A DNA stretch of 64,000 nt from an uncultured Planctomycetota bacterium (GTDB taxonomy: Bacteria > Planctomycetota > Planctomycetia > Gemmatales > Gemmataceae): NCBI GenBank assembly GCA_963849325.1, contig CAWKHF010000012.1, forward strand, positions 576,001 to 640,000, in the 5' to 3' direction. A program made the translations under genes and the position numbers. Of the stretch, positions 36,850 to 48,010 are shown one piece after another (the stretch's first letter is position 1; the number at the start of each line of letters is the position of its first letter). Below the pieces are notes generated by a model. That model saw only the letters and a program-made list of their open reading frames with translations. It was not told the DNA's origin and ran no database searches.

Positions 36850-38486
36850 ATGGCGATGGCAAGTGGGAATCGATGGCGTCGTAGCGGTGTGGCGGGTTTG
36901 TTGCTGGGTGTGCTGCTTTTGACATTGCTCCGGGTCGAAAACTCCTTGCCGGCCCGTGACAAGGCGAAGGTGCCGGCCCTGCCCTCGGACCTGGTGAAGG
37001 TGCCCAGCGATAGCGCCTTTCTGCTCTCCGTGAGGGTCGCCGATCTGTGGGGCAGCGATCTGGTCCAGCCCATCCGCCGGAAGTTGGCCAAGGACATCGG
37101 CGAGGCGAGTGGAGCCTTCGAGAAAAACTTCGGTCTACCGCTGCAACAGGTCGAGCGCTGGACGATGGTCAGCGTTTCCCCTCCGGCCGGCCCCGCGGAG
37201 CCGTTAATGTTCGTGCATACGACCCAGGCGTATGACCGGGCCAAGGTGCTCGCCGCCCACAAGAACGTACAGGAAGAGAAGTACAAGGGCCAAACCTTCT
37301 ACTCCGCCGACAAGAAATGGGCGGTCTATCCGCTCGATGAGCGTTCGCTGGTATACGGATCGCCCAATGAACTTCGCGGCTTGATCGACCATCCCGCGCC
37401 GAAGACCGAGGGCAACCTGGCCGGCGCCCTACGCCTGGCTGCGGGCAAGCATACGCTGACGGCGGCGGCGAACGTGAAAGCCATTAACAACGCCGTCGGC
37501 GGCCAACTGCCGGGTGAAGCGGAGCCGTTCAAACCGTTGCTGCAAGCTCTGTCCGGCACGCTGACCGTGGACGTCGGCGCGGAGTCCCCTGTCCAAGCGA
37601 AACTGATCTTCCCGACCGAGGCCGACGCGAAAGCCGCCGTCAAGCCCGCCAACACCGGCGTGGATCTCGCCGCGCATCGCCCTCGCCCGTGGGATGGCGG
37701 CGTTGGCGAAGCAGAAAGATGCAAACAAGATCGTCGAATTGCTCAAAGAGGTCCAAACGGCCTTGAGGGACGCCCGCATCGAACAGGAGGGCAAGACGCT
37801 GCAAGCCTCGGCCGCGCTCAAGGTCAACGTCGCCTCGGCCGGCGTCTCATTGATGGCGGCGATCCAGCAGGTCCGCGACGCGGCCTCCCGCGCAGAGCAG
37901 CAACAACCTCAAGCAGATTGCCCTCGCCATGCACAATTCCCACGATACCTACGGCCAACTCCCGGCACGAGCTACCTTCGACAAGAACGGCAAGCCGATG
38001 CTGAGCTGGCGCGTGATGATCCTGCCCTTCATCGAGCAGCAGGCGCTTTACGTCCAGTTTCACCTGGATGAGCCGTGGGACAGCGAGCACAACAAGAAAT
38101 TGCTGGTCATGATGCCGCGGACCTACGCCTCGCCCCATGACGAGAAGACCATCCAGGAGCACACGACGTACTACCAGGCGTTCGTCGGCGAGGGCACTGT
38201 CCTGGGAGGCAAAAAAGGCATCACTTTCAGGGACATCACGGACGGCCTCTCGAACACGATCCTGATCGCCGAGGCATCGAAGGCCGTGCCGTGGACCAAG
38301 CCGGAAGACATTCCCTACGACGCCGACAAGCCGCTGCCGAAGCTCGGCCTGCCCGGCGCCAGCGGCTTCCAGGCGGTGTTCTGCGATGGCTCGGTGCGCG
38401 TCATTGCCAACACGGTCAAGCCGAAGGTGCTCCACGCCCTCATCACCTACAACGACGGCATCGACATCAAGGGCGACGATTTCTAA
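36850..38486 (+). CDS. DUF1559-domain protein with long N-terminal extension and no prepilin motif; frameshifts
   Basis: NNLKQIALAMHN, LSWRVMILPFIEQ, DEPWDSEHN, DGLSNTI, VPWTKPED, FCDGSV. Confidence 0.88.
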
Positions 38487-38491
38487 TTGCT

Positions 38492-38524
38492 GTTTCGCGG
38501 CGGCTCTCCGAGCCGCCGCGAAAC
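38492..38524. repeat. Short palindrome / hairpin
   Basis: gtttcgcggcggctc / gagccgccgcgaaac. Confidence 0.75.
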
Positions 38525-38544
38525 CTGAAAGGGGAGAGTCGATC

Positions 38545-40205
38545 ATGCGATCGGGCTTCGTTGTCTTTGTCCTCATCGTGCTCCTCGCCGGCCTGGCTGT
38601 CTCCGCCGAGAAGCCGGCTGTCGTGCCCGGCGACGCCCAGGATCTGTTGCTGTTTCTGGACGCGCGCCCCTATCGGATTCGTCTGCATCTGCAGGTCCGG
38701 GGCCGCTCCTTCCGAACGCACTGGGACGATACGGCGAGCCGCCTGTTCGGCTATCTGGACGTGGACGGCGATGGTTCGCTCAGCAAGAAGGAGGCAGCGC
38801 TGGCCCCCAGCAACACGCAATGGGTACAGATGATGAACGGCACTCCGATCGAACCGGATGCCGCCCCCGACTTCACCGCCCTGGCCGGCGCCGCCGCGAC
38901 GACCGTGACACGCGACGCCTTCCTCCGCTACTATCGCGGTTCCGGGGCCGGGGCGCTCCAGGTCGAATGGGGCTGGCGTCCGCCGGCGGCGGATCGGCTG
39001 ACCGACGCCTTGTTTCGCTACCTCGACACGAACAAGGACGGCGCTCTGTCCCGCGAGGAGTTGTCCGCCGCGGAGACCGCCCTGCATCTGCTCGACCTAG
39101 ACGGCGATGAGATGATCCGGCCCACCGAGCTGGACGCCGCCGGTGTCTACCCCGTCTTTACTTTCCGCTCCTCGACCGAGACGCAGGCCGTGCCGGCTAA
39201 CTTTCCCTTCGCGGTCCTCCAGCCCGACACGCCCGCCAACGTCGTGACCGGCCGGCTGTTTGCTTTTTACGACAAGAACAAGGACCGCAAGCTGAGCCGG
39301 ACGGAATTACCGCTGGACCGGCCGGCCTTCGATCGATTGGACCGCAACCGCGATGGCCAACTCGATTCGGCCGAGTTGGCCGCCTGGCGGAAACTGCCGC
39401 CCGAACTGGAGCTGATCGTACCGTTGGAGAGGAAGGCGCGGCAAGACATCCTCGTCATGCCGGCTGCGGATGGCAAACCGAACCACCTGGCCGCGCGACT
39501 GTCGCCCCGCGACGGCGCTCTGCGCCTGCCGATCGACGAGAAGCAGCTCGAATTGGTTAGCGGCGGCGCCGGGTCGACGGTTCGGCAAACCCTGCTGAAA
39601 CAGTTCGACGACAAGGCCGGCGACAAAGGCGTCCTCGGGGAGAAGGCGATCTACCAACCGCCGTTCACGTTCGTGGCCCTCCTGCGCCTGGCCGATCGGG
39701 ATGGTGACAATCAGTTGTCACGCAAGGAGCTGGCGGATTTCCTGGACATGCAGGAGAAGTTTTTCTTCCGCGCGTCGTACCTGACCGTGGTGGACCGTGG
39801 ACCGTCACTGTTCGAGTTTCTGGACAGCGACCACGATGGCCGCCTGAGTCCGCGCGAGTTGCGTTCGGCGTGGACGCGGTTGTCCCCGTGGGACCGCGAT
39901 AACACCGGGCGCATCGCCGCCGGCAGGTGCCGCGCCAGTTTCAGCTCGTTCTCAGTCATGGCCAGCCGCGCGCCAACCTCCCCGCCGGAGGAGGGACAGG
40001 TTTCGCCGACCTGCCGCTGTTCCGCGACCGCTCGCCCGGCCCGTTGTGGTTCCGCAAGATGGACCGCAACGGCGACGGCAACGTCTCGCCGACCGAGTTC
40101 CTCGGCACGAGCGAGCAGTTTCGCCGTCTCGACGCCGACGGCGATGGTCTGATCAACGTCACGGAGGCCGAGCGCGCCGACAAGGACATGCGCAAGCGTC
40201 GCTGA
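38545..40205 (+). CDS. Secreted multi-EF-hand protein; frameshift near 39925
   Basis: Repeated DxDxDGxLSxxE loops (DVDGDG, DTNKDG, DLDGDE, DRNRDG, DRDGDN, DSDHDG, DRNGDG, DADGDG). Confidence 0.9.
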
Positions 40206-40217
40206 GGCCCACCCGCG

Positions 40218-41153
40218 TTATGGTTGCTTCATCGGCGGTGCGGTGATCAGGTCCAGACCGTTCGCTCCGAGGTGATGGTCGAGCAGGTCGATCTGACCGT
40301 TTTGTTTGAGGCGAGCGAAGAGCTTGCCGCGCTCCTCTTCCCAGATTTGCCGCAGGTAATGCGGGTTCTCCTTCCGGCCGACCTCATACTCCTGGAGCCG
40401 CTTGAGGAAGCGCTCAGCGTCGCGGTGGGCGAGCAGCTTCCGTGCGTGGACGTAAGCGGCCGTCTCCTGTTCGAGTTGATACTTCTCCGCCTCGGCCAGT
40501 TGGAGATTGCGGGCCACGCTCTGCTCCGCCTCGTTTCGCAGGGTGGTGGTGCGCGTCTGGGCCAGGGCGACGCTATCGAAGGCCGGCTTCACGTCGTCCG
40601 GCGGCGCGATCAGCGCCACGCGCGCATCCAGGATCTGCACGCCCAGGCGGTACGGCTCGATCCATTCCTGCGCCTGGCCGACCAGCACGGAACGCATCTC
40701 GTTCTTGCCGTTGAGCAGCACGTCATCGACATTACGGCCGGCGACCCAGCGGGCCATGACGGCTTCCACCGCTCGGCTCAGCAGGGCGTCCACGCGGTCG
40801 GCTTGCAGTACGTAGTCGGCTTCCTCGTCGCGGCGCACCTTGTAGGTGAGCACGGCCTGGACGTTGACCAGGTTGTGATCGCCGGTCAGGAGTTGGCCGG
40901 ACGGCATCGTCTCGCCGGAGGAATCGTCTTCCTGGTAGCCGATGGTGACGCTCTGCACGCGATCGACGGCGACGCGATCGACGCGATCCATGCCCCACGG
41001 CAGCTGCACCGACAGGCCCGGTTCCAACCGGGACGGCAGCAATCGGCCGAAGCGGCGCACGACGCCGCGCTCGCCGGGCCGAACTTGCACCACGCCGGTC
41101 AGAGCGTAACCCGCCATGAGCAGCCCAGCCGCCAGCAACCAGCGCAGTCGCAT
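40218..41153 (-). CDS. hflK: HflK-like SPFH protein
   Basis: VQVRPGERGVVRRFG, LPWGMDRV, LLTGDHNLV, LGVQI, PPDDVKPAFDSV. Confidence 0.88.
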   Translation of the reverse strand: MRLRWLLAAGLLMAGYALTGVVQVRPGERGVVRRFGRLLPSRLEPGLSVQLPWGMDRVDRVAVDRVQSVTIGYQEDDSSGETMPSGQLLTGDHNLVNVQAVLTYKVRRDEEADYVLQADRVDALLSRAVEAVMARWVAGRNVDDVLLNGKNEMRSVLVGQAQEWIEPYRLGVQILDARVALIAPPDDVKPAFDSVALAQTRTTTLRNEAEQSVARNLQLAEAEKYQLEQETAAYVHARKLLAHRDAERFLKRLQEYEVGRKENPHYLRQIWEEERGKLFARLKQNGQIDLLDHHLGANGLDLITAPPMKQP

Positions 41154-41174
41154 GATTCAGCTCCCAAGAGAAAA

Positions 41175-41295
41175 ACCACGAATCACACGAATTACACGAA
41201 TAATAGATAAGAAGAGTAAATAGTTCGGTTATCTACGTCCGATTTCGGGTGTCTTTGATTGCATTTTTTCGTGTGATTCGTGTGATTCGTGGTTT
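41175..41295. repeat. Long-loop inverted repeat (family E variant) overlapping the hflC 3' end
   Basis: aaccacgaatcacacgaattacacgaa / ttcgtgtgattcgtgtgattcgtggtt. Confidence 0.85.
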
Positions 41296-42257
41296 TTCTC
41301 TTTGCCCGGATTGGGCGGGTTGAGCAGGGTGTCGAACATTTCGCGGTGTGTCGAGAGCAGCAGCGTACTCTTGTTATCGCCGAGAATGCGCTGATAGTCC
41401 TCCAGCTTCTTGAGGAAGGTGTAGAACGCGGGATCCTGCTGCGAGGCAGCGTTGCGGATGCGGTCGGCGTCGGCGTCGGCCTGGCCGCGCAGCTGGATGG
41501 ACTGGGCTTCGGCCTCCGCCTTCATCTCGGCCACGCGCCGCGCCCCGGCACTCTCGATGTCCTGCTTGCGCCGTTGACCCTCACTCTCGTAGTCGGCGGC
41601 CTTCTTCCGCCGCTCGCTGCGGATGCGATCGAAGATGGCCTCGCGCACCGCGGCCGGATGGTTGGAGCGACGCAGGCGAATGTCCACCACCTGGATGCCG
41701 TACTCCGATTGGGCCACGGACTCCAGTGACGGGCTGCCCGTGCCGCTGCCCCGCAGCAGCCGATCGCGGAGTTCACTCCGCTTGTCATCCACCTTTTTCG
41801 GGTCCTCGCTGATGAGGTCGTCGAGTTCCATCCGGCCGATGGCGGCGCCCAACTCGCTGTTGATGCGCTGGCCGAGGATCGCCTGTGCCCCCGCCGGCGT
41901 GCCCACGCTGCGGATGAACGTGTCCACCCCCTTGGCATCGGCGATGCGCCAGCACACGTAGGCATCGATGGTTAGCGTGCGATCGATGGTGTTGCGCTTC
42001 GGATCGCGCGTCAGCAATTCCGCCCCCGGCAGGTCGAAATACTGCAAGCGGCGGTCGAGGCGCTGCACCGACTGGATGGGCCAGGGCCATTTGAAGTGCA
42101 GGCCAGCTTGCTCGCCGTTGGCACCGTCGTAGGTGGCCAACGGCCGGCCGAACTGCGTCAGGTAGACGAACTCGGTACGGTCCACGGTGAAGGCACACAG
42201 CGGAGCGACGACGGCCGCCCCGACAAGCCCAAGGATCGCGAGAAGTTTCCAACGCAT
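41229..42257 (-). CDS. hflC: HflC-like SPFH protein
   Basis: TQFGRP, GLHFKWPWP, LTRD, WRIAD, YGIQVVDIRL, IFDRIRSER, RGQADA, DPAFYTFLKKL. Confidence 0.9.
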   Translation of the reverse strand: MRWKLLAILGLVGAAVVAPLCAFTVDRTEFVYLTQFGRPLATYDGANGEQAGLHFKWPWPIQSVQRLDRRLQYFDLPGAELLTRDPKRNTIDRTLTIDAYVCWRIADAKGVDTFIRSVGTPAGAQAILGQRINSELGAAIGRMELDDLISEDPKKVDDKRSELRDRLLRGSGTGSPSLESVAQSEYGIQVVDIRLRRSNHPAAVREAIFDRIRSERRKKAADYESEGQRRKQDIESAGARRVAEMKAEAEAQSIQLRGQADADADRIRNAASQQDPAFYTFLKKLEDYQRILGDNKSTLLLSTHREMFDTLLNPPNPGKEKNHESHESHEKMQSKTPEIGRR

Positions 42258-42298
42258 AACAGCCTCAACTTACCGGCCGGCTCACGCCGGCCATTCGC

Positions 42299-45200
42299 CT
42301 ACGGTTCGCCGCGCATCTCGCTCGGTTGAGTGCGCGGGGGCGCCATCAAGCCGGGCAGGGGCAGACCGAATGGGCCAGGAGGGATCAGCCAGAGGTTGCG
42401 CCGGCCGGGCACGCGGTCGGCGTCGATGAGGATCTTGTCGCGGTTACTCAGGGCGGCCGACAGGGAGTCCCAGTACAGGCGGAAATCGGTCAACGCCGCT
42501 TGCCGGACCAGCGCCTCGTCGCGGCGGCGCAGGTACTCCTCGCCCACCTCGGCGGCCGGCCGGCCCTTGCCCATCTCCCGCCAGGCGTCGCGGAACAGAC
42601 GCCATTCCTCGGCCAGGTCCAGACGTACTCGCGTTCGGTATCGTGCCTGGAACGCCGACAGGTTCGGCCTGGGCGAGGAGGACTTTATTCCGGGAGTCGG
42701 ACTGCGCCTCGCGGACCTGTTTCAGTCCGTCGGCCTGCTGCCGCCGTTCATCGCGCAGCACTTTTTCCTCGCCCTGGTTGACCAACTGGTCGCGTTTCTC
42801 CATCGCGCGGGTGACGTCGTGGTAAGCCGCCACCACGTCCTGCGGCGGATGCAGGTCGTGCAGGTCCAGACCCTTCAGGGCGATGCCCATGCCCTTGCCG
42901 CCATACTCCCCGCAACGCTCCCGCAAACGTTCCAGGGCCATGTCCTGAAACCGGCCGCGATCGCTGGTCAGCAACTCGGCGAATTTCCGGCCGGCGACCG
43001 TCTCGCGCAGCACGGACTCGGCGGCACTGCGCAAGAGAGCGTCGGGTTCGGCGATCTCGAACAGGTAGACGTGCGGGTCGGCGATGGTGTAGCGAAGGGT
43101 GCCTTGCAGCTCGATCAGGTTGCCGTCGCCGGTAATCATGACGGCTTCCTCGGGGATGCGGCGAACGCCGTCGTTGGCGTGCAGGCTCGACCAGGCCCGG
43201 CCGCCGGCCACGGCCTTACTGCCGGGCAGAGTACGGAAGCCGATCTCGACCGTGTGAACGCGGGCCGGTTGCAGGCGCGTGACGGTATCAATCGGCCACG
43301 GCCAGCACCAGTACAGACCGGGACCGAGATCGTCCGGCAGAGGCCGGCCGAAGCGGCGCACCACGGCCGACCTCGTCGGGACCGATCGCGTTCAGCCCAC
43401 TCAAGCCCCAGACGGCCGCGGCCAGCAGCACGAGGACGGCGAGGATCGGTTTCCATTGATGCGACAGCCGTGCAACGCCTCGTCGAGGTCGAGGCGGTGT
43501 TCGAGCCAGTCGTTGAACCGGCGCAGGCCGCCGTACAGGCGCTGGAACAGCGGGCTGGTCGAGGTGCGCTCAAACCACAGCAGCCGCATGGCGTTGAGCA
43601 GGACGGCCAGCGAGCCGAGCTGGTGATAGACGACGGCGGCGACGGGCGATTGCTCGTACCACTGCGGCGGGGCCAGCAGCGGCCACAGCCAGGCCGTCGT
43701 CACGATGCCGACAGCGTTGACGCCGAAGGCGAAGATGAGGATGTTCTGGCGGATGATGCGCACCGTCTCGCGCGACAGCCGGAGTAGCAGCGGCAGCGGA
43801 CGTAGCGGATCGCCCATGAAGACGACATCGCCGGCCTCGGCGGCGATGTCGGCGCCCGTACCGCCGATGGCCAGGCCGACGTCGGCGCGGGCCAGGGCCG
43901 GGGCGTCGTTGATGCCGTCGCCGACCATGGCAACGCGCCGGCCGGTCTGCTGCCAGGCGGCGACGAACTCCGCCTTCTGCTGCGGCAACAGCTCGGCGTG
44001 GACCTCGCTCACTCCCAACGCGGCGGCGACGACTCTGGGCCACCGCCGCGCGATCGCCGGTCAGCATGGCGATGTGCGTGATGCCCAGCGCCCGTAGGTC
44101 GGCCAGCACCTCCGCCGCCTCGACGCGAGGACGATCGCGGACGCCGATCATGCCAAGCAGTTTGCCGTCGCGGACGACAAGCAGCGCCGTTTGACCGTTG
44201 GCGTCGAGGGCGTCGAGCATCGGCTGGGCTTGCGGCGGCAGGCCGACGCCCTGTTCTTCCAGCAGCCGACGATTGCCGACGATGATCCGGCCGGCGGATG
44301 CGCGGGCCGAGACGCCGGTGCCAGGATGGGCCCGGAAGTCCTCGACCGGCTCGGGAGCGATCCCTCGTCGGCTCGCCTCCTGCGACGATGAGCCGGGCGA
44401 TGAGGTGCTCGCTGGGCTGCTCCGCACTGGCGGCGATCCGCAACAATTCTTCACGCCGTGGACGCCCTCGTCGAGCCGGAGGAGTCGCCCAGCTCCAGAC
44501 GGCCCTCGGTGAGGGTGCCGGTTTTGTCGAAAGCGAAGGCGTCGACCGGGCCAGACGTTCCAGGGCCGAGCCGCCCTTGATGAGGATGCCGGTTCCGGCC
44601 AGGCGCCCAGCGCCGCGATGATCGCCGCCGGCGTCGCCAGGATCAGCGCGCACGGACAGGCCACGACCAGCACGGACAGGGCCGGCAGCGTCACCAGCTG
44701 CCGAAAACTCAGGTTCGTCTCGGGCGGACGCATCCAGCCGGTGCCGTAGCCGACGAGGCAGACCAGGAAGGTCAGCGCGGCCAGGGCCAGGACGGCCGGC
44801 AGGAAGTAGCGGGCCAGGCGGTCGGCGGTGCGTTCCAGCGGCGCCTTGTCCTTCAGGGCGCGGGCGGTCATCTCGATGACCCGACCGACGACCGTGTGCT
44901 CGGCGACGCGGCGGGCCTCGAAGGTCAGGGCGCCGAACTGGTTGAGCGAGCCGGCCAGCACTTCGTCGCCCGGCCCTTTGTCCACCGGCAGACTCTCGCC
45001 GGTCAAGGCGCTAACGTCCACGGCCGAGCGCCCTTCGAGGACGACGCCGTCGGCCGGCACGCGGCCGCCCGGCTTGACGACGACACGATCGCCGACCTGC
45101 AAGTCTGCCGCGAGCACGCGCTCCTCACGGCCGTCGCGCAGCCGCCAGCAGCGGCGCGGACAGACCTCGACGATGCGACGAATGGCCCGCTGCGTCCGCT

Positions 45201-45582
45201 CGAAGGTGACGCTCTCCAGGCATTCGCCGAGCATGCCGATGAAGACGATCTCGGCGGCGACGAGCGGCTCCTGCACGAGGATGGCGGCGACGGAGGCGAT
45301 GGCCACCGCCAGGTCGGCGCCAATTCGTCCCTCAAACAGCGAATTGAGCGAACCGTACAGGGTGCGCGCTCCGCCGAGGATCGCGGCCAGCAGGGCGATG
45401 CGGTAGCCGAAAGGCTCGTTGGACCAGGTAGGCAGGGACGGCCCTCCGGCGGCGATCCAGCGGGCCGCGATCGGCCAGACGTCGGCGCCGATCAACACGC
45501 CGAGCAGGCCCGTCAGCAGGTAGAGGCCGAGCCGGCCCTCCTGTCCGAAGGCGTCGTCGGCGTGGGAGATCTCGCGGTGCAT
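42299..45582 (-). CDS. P1B-type heavy-metal ATPase apparently fused to a C-terminal HflK/SPFH domain; several frameshifts
   Basis: LTGESLP, VACPCALILATP, FDKTGTLT (44510-44533), MLTGD, GDGINDAPALA; then TM and GPDEV.VVRRFGR, WPWPID, MITGDGNL, HPPQDVVAAY. Confidence 0.87.
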
Positions 45583-45775
45583 CGGCGCGGCTCCGGGGTG
45601 CGCGGGCATCAGGTGGGTGTTCAGATTTGTTCAGGCTACGGTGGCCGGAGAACGTCGTCAAGCGTGTCTACGGCCCTCGCGGGGCAGCGCCGGAAAAAAA
45701 GTGAACGAAAATCCTTCGAGGGCGCCACTATTATGGGAAGAGATATCACTGCCTGACCGCGAAGGAGAAACCGCC

Positions 45776-48010
45776 GTGCGCCTGACCCTGCGAACCTTGC
45801 TGGCTTACCTGGACGACACGCTGGAGCCGATGGAAATCAAGAAGATCGGCCAGAAGGTCAGCGAGAGCGAAGCCGCCCAGGAACTGATCGCGCGCATCAA
45901 GCAAGTCACCCGCCGCCGTCGCATCACCACGCCGCCGGCCACCGGACCCAACGCCTTCGACCCGAACACGGTCGCGGACTACCTCGACAACGAGCTGTCC
46001 TCCGAGGAGATCGCCGAGCTGGAAAAGATCTGCCTGGAATCGGACGTACACCTCGCCGAGATCGCCACCTGTCATCAGATCCTGACGCTGGTACTGGGCG
46101 AGCCGGCCCTGGTGCCGCCGACCGCCAAGGAACGCATGTACGGCCTGGTGCAGGGCCGCGAAGCCATCCCCTTCCGTAAGGCGGCCACGCCCGGAGTCCA
46201 TGCGCCGTCGCCCAGCGCCGCGGACATTGACGCCGACGAGATGTTTCTGCTCGGCTTGCCGTTTTACCGTCGCGGCAGCTGGCTGCGCTGGGCCTTGCCC
46301 GTGGCCGGCGTCGTCCTGCTCGCGGTGGTGGCCGTCGCCCTGTGGCAATCCATCTCCAGCCTCAACCAGGCCACGCAGCCGGCGCCGGTTAAGCAGGTCG
46401 CCGACGCGAGCAATCCCGACAAGCCGGACAACACCAAACCCGATAACACCAAGCCGGACAACACCAAACCCGATAACACCAAGCCGGACAACACCAAACC
46501 CGATAACACCAAGCCGGACAACACCAAACCCGACAATACGGACAGCAAAAAACCTGAGAATACGGACAGCAAGAAACCCGACAACACGGACAACACCAAG
46601 CCCGACAACACGGAATCGAAGAGGCCGGCGAGCAACCCCGTCACCCGTAAAGCCAAGCCGAGCACCGAGCGAGCGGAGGTAGGCGGTTACTACTTCGACG
46701 CCAAAAGCCCGCCGAGCATCTTGGTACAGCGCAAGAACGAGGAGGACGGCTGGCACCGGCTTAAACCAGGCACGCGGGTATCCAGCAAGGACCAGTTGAT
46801 GAGCCTGCCCGGCTATGCCAGCGAGCTGCGCCTGGACAACGGCGCCCATCTGCTGCTGCGCGGCCACGTCCGCGAGTTCTCGCTTCCCCTGTATCCCCAC
46901 ATGGATTATCTGCAGGAAAGCGCGGTCGTGCTGCACAAGAACAAGGACGTCGATGTCGATGTGACGCTTCAGCGCGGCCGGCTCTACCTCTCCAACCACA
47001 AGGACAAAGGCCCGCTCGTGGCCCGGCTGCGCTTTGAGACGGAGGTTTGGGATCTGACCCTGGAGGAGCCTGGCTCGGAAGTCGGGATGGAGTTGCTCAA
47101 GTATTACGACCGCAACAGCGATTACTCGCGCGGCGAGGAACCGGTGGCCATCCTGTACCTGCTCGTGCTTCAGGGACGAGCGAGCCTGGCCGTGGAATAC
47201 AACCAGTATCCCAACCTGTCGCGGACGGGCGCGGGCTTTTTCCAGTGGGACAACAAGGGACCCGGCGCTCAGGGGCCGCAGCGCGTGGACGACCAGGTAC
47301 GCGGCGCCTTCGCCAAGGTGCCGCCGTCCAATCGCGGCGCCGAGGGCATGGATTTGGCCCTGAACCAGATCAGCCGCCGCATGCTCCCCGACAAGTTCCC
47401 GTCCGTCGCCCTCGATGAAGCGCTGCTGAGCAGCAACCAGCCAATGGAACACATGCTGGCCATCTACTGCCTCGGCGCGCTGGACGAGGTCAAGAAACTG
47501 ATTGGCGTTCTCGGCGACAACGATCCGGTCCACGCTCCGAACCGCGACACGGCCATCTTCACCCTGCGGCGCTGGCTCGCGCGCGATGCGTCGCAGGGTC
47601 TGAAACTCTACGATCCCAAGAACAAGACCGGCCTGTTGCAGGTAGATCGGGAGTACAAAGAAAGTGAGGCGGATACCGTCTTCCTGTTGCTGCACGACTT
47701 CAATGAGGAGGACCGGGCCAAGCCGGAGACGTACGATTTGCTGGCGACCTGCCTCCTGAGCGAGAAAGTGGCCATCGCGGAGTTGGCCCGCTGGCACCTG
47801 TATCGGCTGTCCAGCACGTTGGGTGTCAAGCTCTCCGCCCTGGACAAGTTCAACGCCGCCTTGCCACGCCCGGAACGCGAAGCGGCGGCTCGGGAAGTAC
47901 GAGACAAGATTAACGAAGGCAAGTTGCCGCCGCGTACCACCGGCAGGCCCACCGGACCCGCCCCGGTCACACCCCCACGCAACGGCTCGGGGACGAAACC
48001 CAAGAGTTAG
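45776..48010 (+). CDS. Planctomycete-type single-TM hypothetical protein with PDNTK linker repeats
   Basis: RBS aggag then GTG; RLTLRTLLAYLDDTLEP...DPNTVADYLDNEL...LAEIATCHQIL; TM; large C-terminal region. Confidence 0.85.
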   Translation: MRLTLRTLLAYLDDTLEPMEIKKIGQKVSESEAAQELIARIKQVTRRRRITTPPATGPNAFDPNTVADYLDNELSSEEIAELEKICLESDVHLAEIATCHQILTLVLGEPALVPPTAKERMYGLVQGREAIPFRKAATPGVHAPSPSAADIDADEMFLLGLPFYRRGSWLRWALPVAGVVLLAVVAVALWQSISSLNQATQPAPVKQVADASNPDKPDNTKPDNTKPDNTKPDNTKPDNTKPDNTKPDNTKPDNTDSKKPENTDSKKPDNTDNTKPDNTESKRPASNPVTRKAKPSTERAEVGGYYFDAKSPPSILVQRKNEEDGWHRLKPGTRVSSKDQLMSLPGYASELRLDNGAHLLLRGHVREFSLPLYPHMDYLQESAVVLHKNKDVDVDVTLQRGRLYLSNHKDKGPLVARLRFETEVWDLTLEEPGSEVGMELLKYYDRNSDYSRGEEPVAILYLLVLQGRASLAVEYNQYPNLSRTGAGFFQWDNKGPGAQGPQRVDDQVRGAFAKVPPSNRGAEGMDLALNQISRRMLPDKFPSVALDEALLSSNQPMEHMLAIYCLGALDEVKKLIGVLGDNDPVHAPNRDTAIFTLRRWLARDASQGLKLYDPKNKTGLLQVDREYKESEADTVFLLLHDFNEEDRAKPETYDLLATCLLSEKVAIAELARWHLYRLSSTLGVKLSALDKFNAALPRPEREAAAREVRDKINEGKLPPRTTGRPTGPAPVTPPRNGSGTKPKS
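46421..46610 (+). repeat. Coding tandem repeat: 15-nt units forming a 30-nt higher-order unit
   Basis: aagccggacaacaccaaacccgataacacc perfect x3 (46421-46510) plus degenerate copies. Confidence 0.95.

Follow-up and report, generated by a model that had tools for sequence, protein, structure and literature searches.

Fusion of a P1B-type metal ATPase with an HflK-type SPFH protein in Gemmataceae, and the recurrent link of its gene cluster to metal exporters

A three-gene cluster from an uncultured Planctomycetota bacterium of the family Gemmataceae raises the question of whether a heavy-metal pump and an HflK-type subunit are made there as a single protein and, if so, what such a pairing would do at the membrane. 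The cluster lies in a 64,000-nucleotide stretch of DNA, referred to here as the window (NCBI GenBank assembly GCA_963849325.1, contig CAWKHF010000012.1, positions 576,001 to 640,000 of the forward strand). Its first gene, K1, encodes a P1B-type metal ATPase that continues into an HflK-type SPFH protein, and is followed by an HflC-type gene and by a second HflK-type gene, K2, which has no transporter part. K1 is one protein in which the pump is fused to the HflK-type part, and the fusion is real and conserved. One HflK-type subunit of the conserved trio is, in addition, recurrently joined to metal exporters, either by fusion or by gene neighbourhood. We consider it probable that the locus encodes a scaffold-tethered metal-efflux module, in which the pump is carried on a membrane scaffold of the HflK/C type.

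An initial annotation, made from the letters of the window, had described three tightly spaced minus-strand genes at this place, and this layout was confirmed (Table 1), with intergenic gaps of 41 and 75 bases. Pfam analysis identified E1-E2_ATPase (8e-52) and Hydrolase domains in the first gene and a Band_7 domain in each of the three genes. The P1B motifs TGES, CPC, DKTGT and GDGIND that had been reported for the first gene are all present, spread over different reading frames of the window, and are conserved in 34–35 of 35 fused orthologues.

To read the first gene as a whole, window positions 45582–42302 were aligned in a frameshift-aware manner to an intact 1101-residue homologue (P0023), which gave 898 identities in 1104 columns (81%) without any in-frame stop. 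The junction sequence that the annotation had reconstructed (..LHWLSHQWKPILAVLVLL..GPDEV.VVRRFGR) is the same in the intact homologues, which read ...LDxDE..HWLSHQWKP, then a membrane helix, then ...GPDE.GVVRRFG, and the absence of a stop codon or obvious ATG at the corrected junction, also part of the earlier description, agrees with the read-through alignment. From the raw window a case can be made that the ATPase and the HflK part are separate genes, the first ending and the second restarting at the junction, and that frame correction created the fusion, since the uncorrected ATPase frame meets a stop near 43401. The helix-bearing frame, however, contains no ATG, GTG or TTG between its upstream stop and the helix from which a separate HflK-type protein could start, and more than 100 intact homologues are continuous across the junction. 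These read-through homologues rule out the two-gene reading for the family, and we give it practically no credence.

Of the longer database matches to the SPFH part (693), the best 120 were examined, and 103 of these were proteins of approximately 1090–1140 residues with PF00122, PF00702 and PF01145 together. Proteins with both ATPase and Band_7 domains, for which the initial annotation had proposed a search, are numerous. The rest of the best 120 consisted of seven matches with PF00702 and PF01145 and ten with PF01145 only, many of these 17 being located on contigs of a few kb. Some of the matches are named 'cation-translocating P-type ATPase family protein [Gemmataceae bacterium]' at NCBI, and the name given at JGI is 'Cu+-exporting ATPase'. 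Within the Gemmataceae, 119 of the 120 other genomes sampled matched the fused query. At least 52 of the 120 did so in one uninterrupted, stop-free match from residue 1 to at least residue 1076, and most of the remaining matches were split alignments within frames of more than 1000 residues or were cut by contig ends.

The two indels near 43470 and 43368 on which the first reconstruction had relied are both real, but their number was underestimated, as the K1 gene contains seven further breaks. All nine are single-base changes (five missing and four extra bases) and they lie near 44610, 44548, 44483, 44454, 44380, 44031, 43469, 43365 and 42662. The breaks are very probably assembly errors, because rpoB and rpoC of the same assembly are broken up as well, into no fewer than four and three frame pieces respectively (G000:C1:334967-343005), because a second ftsH and all other P-type ATPase loci of the assembly are likewise split, because the genome is only 84.7% complete although it is assembled in 14 contigs, and because both same-genus orthologues consist of a single stop-free frame (1109 residues; 81% and 74% identity to P0023). 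Single-base frame breaks occur throughout this assembly, and gene calls in this genome need frameshift-aware reading. Were the breaks real instead, the fused gene would be dead in this organism and only the hflC-type and K2 genes would be working. Such a pseudogene would account for the density of breaks: nine fall within 3.3 kb, and the following 2 kb contain none instead of the five or so that an equal rate would give. It would not account for the splitting of rpoB and rpoC, which are essential, or of the second ftsH and the other ATPase loci, nor for a read-through frame that is stop-free and 81% identical to an intact homologue over its whole length, and both same-genus orthologues are intact; we regard it as very unlikely. 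GC content over the ATPase part was 0.70–0.72, compared with 0.58–0.67, and synteny between the window and the same-genus genome G107 was limited to the three-gene cluster.

The C-terminal 402 residues of the same-genus orthologue were modelled with AlphaFold2 from a 42-sequence alignment (pLDDT 84). In the model a membrane helix and an SPFH domain are accompanied by helices at residues 223–294, 298–313 and 318–352 and by two short C-terminal strands. The best Foldseek matches were E. coli HflK chains, led by 7vhq_E (E 1e-18) and followed by 9cz2, 9paw and 7wi3, with stomatin, erlin, prohibitin and QmcA next in order, and PDB sequence matches of the K1 outer part were E. coli HflK chains only (E 1e-23). 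As modelled, the outer part of K1 is HflK-like in fold and build. The HflC-type protein scored 139.5 bits with TIGR01932, above the equivalog cut-off of 134.4. In a quick tree of 67 SPFH regions, which leaves the deep order among the K1 and K2 groups unresolved, HflC-type proteins clustered with E. coli HflC (support 99), and every K1 and K2 protein lay on the side of E. coli HflK. The C-terminus of P1B pumps is cytoplasmic, and so is the N-terminus of HflK, from which one helix leads to an outward-facing body, so that the fusion is topologically coherent. The K1 chain would thereby run from the cytoplasmic C-terminus of the ATPase through the linker and a ninth helix to an HflK-type body on the outer membrane face. 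His-rich tracts were present in 4 of 68 module proteins, none of them from the family of the window. They include residues 385–427 of K1 in L053, 366–395 of K1 in L054 and 17–71 of K2 in L062, all in other families, and were of the type (HSHG)n within the outward-facing SPFH part or (HD/HG)n at one K2 N-terminus.

The ATPase part could be aligned to solved P1B pumps as far as the end of the last membrane helix (to LpCopA up to residue 731), and no HMA metal-binding domain was detected in the first gene by Pfam. The intact homologue P0023 scored 545 bits with TIGR01525 (heavy-metal ATPase, cut-off 346.25), which places it among the P1B pumps; the broken ATPase pieces of the window itself scored below this cut-off, as expected of fragments. 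With TIGR01512 (IB2_Cd) the orthologue scored 409 bits, above the cut-off of 313.5, and with TIGR01511 (IB1_Cu) 385 bits, below the cut-off of 397. Cu(I) pumps (P1B-1) have a YN motif in helix 5 and an MxxSS motif in helix 6, the CopA residues being Cu(I) ligands, and Zn/Cd pumps (P1B-2) carry a Lys in helix 5 and an Asp in helix 6. In comparison with LpCopA, helix 5 has VN for YN and helix 6 HQLGS for MALSS, with His-Gln at the place of the Asp of Zn/Cd-type pumps. The helix-6 His is invariant (35 of 35 orthologues) and is reminiscent of Co/Zn-type pumps. The profile scores and helix residues favour a divalent substrate (Zn, Co or Cd type) over Cu(I), an assignment that we hold loosely because whole-sequence scores rank CopA chains first.

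Conservation of the gene cluster was examined first within the family. The fused gene was followed directly by an hflC-type gene in 20 of 29 informative loci; a further locus had no flank. The hflC-type gene was searched for in five of the nine genomes in which this link was broken and was present in all five, 1.7 kb further downstream in one genome and on another contig in four. A K2 gene adjoined the displaced hflC-type gene in each of the four informative loci, the fifth ending at a contig edge. At one locus (L014 / L032, G111:C20) approximately 1.7 kb with a 436-residue open frame separates the fused and hflC-type genes, interrupting the operon. Outside the family, 400 other Planctomycetota genomes were searched with a 220-residue query spanning the junction, and matches were obtained in 77. 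Pfam analysis of nine matching frames revealed five with E1-E2_ATPase, Hydrolase and Band_7, three with Cation_efflux (CDF) and Band_7, and one truncated frame with Band_7 only. Gene order was then examined in 20 loci from other Planctomycetota families. The order K1-HflC-K2 was found in 16 of them; of the others, one ended at a contig edge after hflC, two had no K2 match and one consisted of a fused gene alone.

Five of these 20 loci have a P1B ATPase as the N-terminal partner of K1, four have a CDF domain and ten a six-helix domain; in the remaining locus K1 is part of a 1037-residue frame in which Pfam detected Band_7 only. All of the best 120 of 2305 database matches for the CDF-K1 fusion combined PF01545 with PF01145. 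They carry the public names 'FtsH protease activity modulator HflK' or 'membrane protease subunit HflK' and originate, by record name, from Hydrogenedentota, Eisenbacteria, Desulfobacteraceae and Planctomycetota, among others. Entries of this kind are L048-L051, L038, L039 and L046, with proteins P0121-P0240. Where K1 was not itself fused to an ATPase, a separate P1B ATPase gene adjoined the trio in 10 of 15 loci. The CPx motif of these adjoining ATPases (L051-L054, L062-L067) could be read in 7 of the 10 loci, four of which have CPC and three CPS or CPT; in the other three it lay beyond the fetched DNA.

The six-helix domain (approximately 300 residues, at the K1 N-terminus in L052-L054, L060-L065 and L067) had no Pfam match and is marked by the motifs ..YRPR.., ..DSR.. 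and ..DYQFGF..W.Y. Comparison with the CDF parts by hhalign gave a probability of 92.9% (E 3.7e-7 over 191 columns). An AlphaFold2 model (pLDDT 83, pTM 0.81) had its best fold matches with ZnT7, SLC30A10, ZnT1, ZnT3/4 and YiiP, all of them weak (E 5e-3 to 0.1, TM-score 0.37–0.53), and the best Protein Atlas scores for the domain, 0.80, were at chance level. All 105 database matches of the domain had PF01145 only, came mostly from Phycisphaerales and were named 'SPFH domain-containing protein' or 'hypothetical protein'. The domain resembles CDF and has not retained the conserved His/Asp positions of the CDF parts, so that it may be what remains of a transporter, used as an anchor. Taken with the fusions to two classes of exporter, this CDF-like domain and the frequent P1B neighbour form a pattern that points to a dedicated link with metal efflux.

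The initial annotation had regarded the SPFH genes as a paralogous HflK/C/K set with the metal ATPase as its client. The tie to metal exporters is borne out by the fusions and adjoining genes found in the comparison, whereas paralogy to a canonical hflKC is not, as no other HflK/C-type gene was found in this 84.7%-complete genome. Band_7 gave four matches in the whole genome, namely the trio and one protein on contig 9 (G000:C9:406272-408122; L070:773-2623). The latter is 617 residues long with one N-terminal helix and is of a different build, with Band_7 only at residues 350–551 after a long insert, and BLAST revealed no similarity to any K1, K2 or HflC-type protein. The trio may be the only HflK/C of this organism, which leaves room for an ordinary FtsH-modulating role. 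In that event the main job of the ring would still be the control of FtsH, and the pump would have been fused so that FtsH could survey or degrade it, or the fusion would be of little consequence. The presence of FtsH domains at three places in the genome fits this explanation, as do the HflC-type protein, which passes the HflC equivalog cut-off and groups with E. coli HflC, and the K1 fold, which is closest to that of E. coli HflK from FtsH complexes. Linkage does not fit it: the absence of ftsH from the window, already reported in the annotation, extends to 68 related loci (456 kb in all), in none of which an ftsH homologue was found. K1 and K2 also score under the HflK equivalog cut-off, and at the K1 position there are fusions to two classes of exporter and to a CDF-like domain, with a P1B ATPase often adjoining the trio. 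We judge FtsH control as the main role to be rather unlikely, although it can coexist or overlap with a scaffold-tethered efflux module.

For the efflux module that we favour, gene order and homology suggest that K1, the HflC-type protein and K2 would assemble together, as is the case for HflK and HflC of E. coli. The E. coli HflK/C ring contains 12+12 subunits and encloses FtsH. In a ring of that size a pump at every HflK position would be crowded, which suggests K2 for the remaining positions: some HflK positions would carry the pump and others would be filled by pump-free K2, limiting the crowding. The short linker would hold the pump at the ring wall, and efflux would take place in a membrane patch delimited by the scaffold. 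The ring could stabilise or organise the pump, gate its turnover, or confine the exported metal. A bolder version can be imagined, in which K1, HflC and K2 form a closed, outward-facing chamber over a ring of tethered exporters and metal is released into this confined space rather than freely into the periplasm. Such a nanocompartment would be independent of FtsH and specific to its client; it would have been reused with three types of exporter (P1B ATPase, CDF and CDF-like) across several phyla, and SPFH cages would gain a defined job, that of enclosing a transporter outlet. We offer the chamber as a speculation that is probably wrong.

Several observations weigh against a scaffold-tethered efflux module. 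The trio comprises the only HflK/C-type genes found in the genome, and on TIGR01933 (HflK) both K1 (123.9 bits) and K2 (132.2 bits) fall under the equivalog cut-off of 159.4. By whole-sequence score the nearest solved ATPases are of the CopA type (349 and 340 bits), ahead of 7qbz (315 bits) and ZntA (302 bits), and there is no obvious metal-binding tract in the SPFH parts of the proteins of the window. Within the family, 9 of the 29 informative loci have lost the operon link, and outside it the 3.8 kb downstream of one fused gene (L057) contain neither an HflC nor a K2 gene. Finally, the frame breaks are unevenly spread, with nine in the 3.3 kb of K1 and none in the 2 kb of both downstream genes, although GC content is higher over the ATPase part.

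Table 1. Coordinates of the gene cluster and of the parts of K1 (positions in the window)
Feature	Position	Strand	Details and basis
K1 fusion gene: P1B-type metal ATPase + HflK-type SPFH protein	42299..45582	-	approximately 1092 residues with nine frame breaks read through; alignment to intact P0023
ATPase part, MHREISH to ..LNAMRLLWFER	43566..45582	-	Pfam; TGES, CPC, DKTGT, GDGIND; orthologue 545 bits with TIGR01525
Cytoplasmic linker, approximately 35–40 residues, ..TSTSPLFQRLYGGLRRFNDWLEHRLDLDEALH.LSHQWK, partly helical	43450..43565	-	corresponds in alignment to the region before the helix in other K1 proteins; model helices at residues 2–17
Ninth membrane helix PILAVLVLLAAAVWGLSGL, equivalent of the single N-terminal helix of HflK	43393..43449	-	model helix at residues 19–36; aligned to the E. 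coli HflK helix region
HflK-type outer part: SPFH, long coiled-coil helices, short C-terminal strands	42299..43392	-	Band_7 at 42663-43367 (Pfam 1e-19); model; PDB matches
Junction frame break, one base missing near 43469	43460..43475	-	
Frame break preceding VVRRFG (extra base near 43365)	43360..43370	-	
Intact HflC-type gene of 342 residues with a single membrane helix at the N-terminus	41229..42257	-	TIGR01932 above cut-off; quick tree; start 41 bases past K1 stop
K2, second HflK-type gene, 311 residues, intact, no transporter part	40218..41153	-	HflK side of quick tree; start 75 bases past hflC stop

Both genes flanking the trio are on the opposite strand, and the trio thus forms a self-contained cluster. 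Scans of positions 39800–46200 revealed no promoter-like site and six terminator-like sites, all on the strand opposite to the trio. Convergent with the cluster is a plus-strand gene (38386–40205) for a secreted-looking protein with many EF-hand motifs, the end of which is seemingly shifted to another frame (open reading frame 39927–40205), probably by a further frame break of the assembly. Divergent from the pump gene is an open reading frame (45617–48010, plus strand) for a 797-residue protein without a Pfam match, within which positions 46420–46614 contain perfect or near-perfect tandem DNA repeats of period 15/30 that encode (PDNTK)n.

The role of SPFH cages such as HflK/C, prohibitin, stomatin and flotillin for the proteins that they enclose or adjoin is still being worked out, and their clients are usually hard to identify. 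A client that evolution has attached covalently, and has done so repeatedly with different metal exporters, names the client, fixes the topology and offers an experimental handle. The fusion is widespread and hidden under single-domain names, thousands of proteins known only as 'Cu+-exporting ATPase' or 'FtsH protease activity modulator HflK' being two-part machines. Full-text literature searches, supplements excluded, returned no description of a transporter-HflK or transporter-SPFH fusion. In the accessible text of the 2009 survey of prokaryotic SPFH proteins by Hinderhofer et al. (PMC2636767) the words 'ATPase', 'fused' and 'transporter' are absent, and the sole 'fusion' mentioned there relates to the gene for NfeD and a protease. 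A metal-efflux client joined covalently to a scaffold of the HflK/C type seems to be undescribed.

Among known systems, the cluster is closest in build to the HflK/HflC-FtsH complex of E. coli (7VHP, 7VHQ, 7WI3, 9CZ1/2, 9PAW), with which it shares the N-terminal helix, SPFH domain, coiled-coil helices and C-terminal strands, as well as the order of an HflK-type gene followed by an HflC-type gene. Unlike E. coli HflK, K1 carries a whole P1B ATPase at its N-terminus, an extra pump-free HflK-type gene follows hflC, no ftsH is linked, and K1 and K2 are below the HflK equivalog cut-off. E. coli HflK/C is reported to affect respiration through protein stability (PMC12005517). With the P1B ATPases CopA (3J08, 3RFU), the sCoaT type (7QBZ) and ZntA (4UMV), K1 shares the catalytic core and the membrane CPC; it differs from them in that no HMA domain was detected, in its C-terminus, which runs into HflK, and in having VN and HQxGS for the YN and MALSS of LpCopA. 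The CDF-HflK proteins have the same K1-type SPFH part, the same K1-HflC-K2 order and a metal exporter at the N-terminus, but their exporter is a CDF membrane domain of approximately 250 residues with no ATPase. Stomatin cages likewise combine an SPFH cage with membrane transport proteins: a recent preprint places SLC transporters among the associated cargo (bioRxiv 10.1101/2025.08.30.673307), and PDB entry 9ZD2 is titled as aquaporin 1 bound to stomatin. In the stomatin system the client is bound non-covalently and the cage, a homo-oligomer, lies on the cytosolic face, whereas the client of K1 is covalently fused and its scaffold would face outward.

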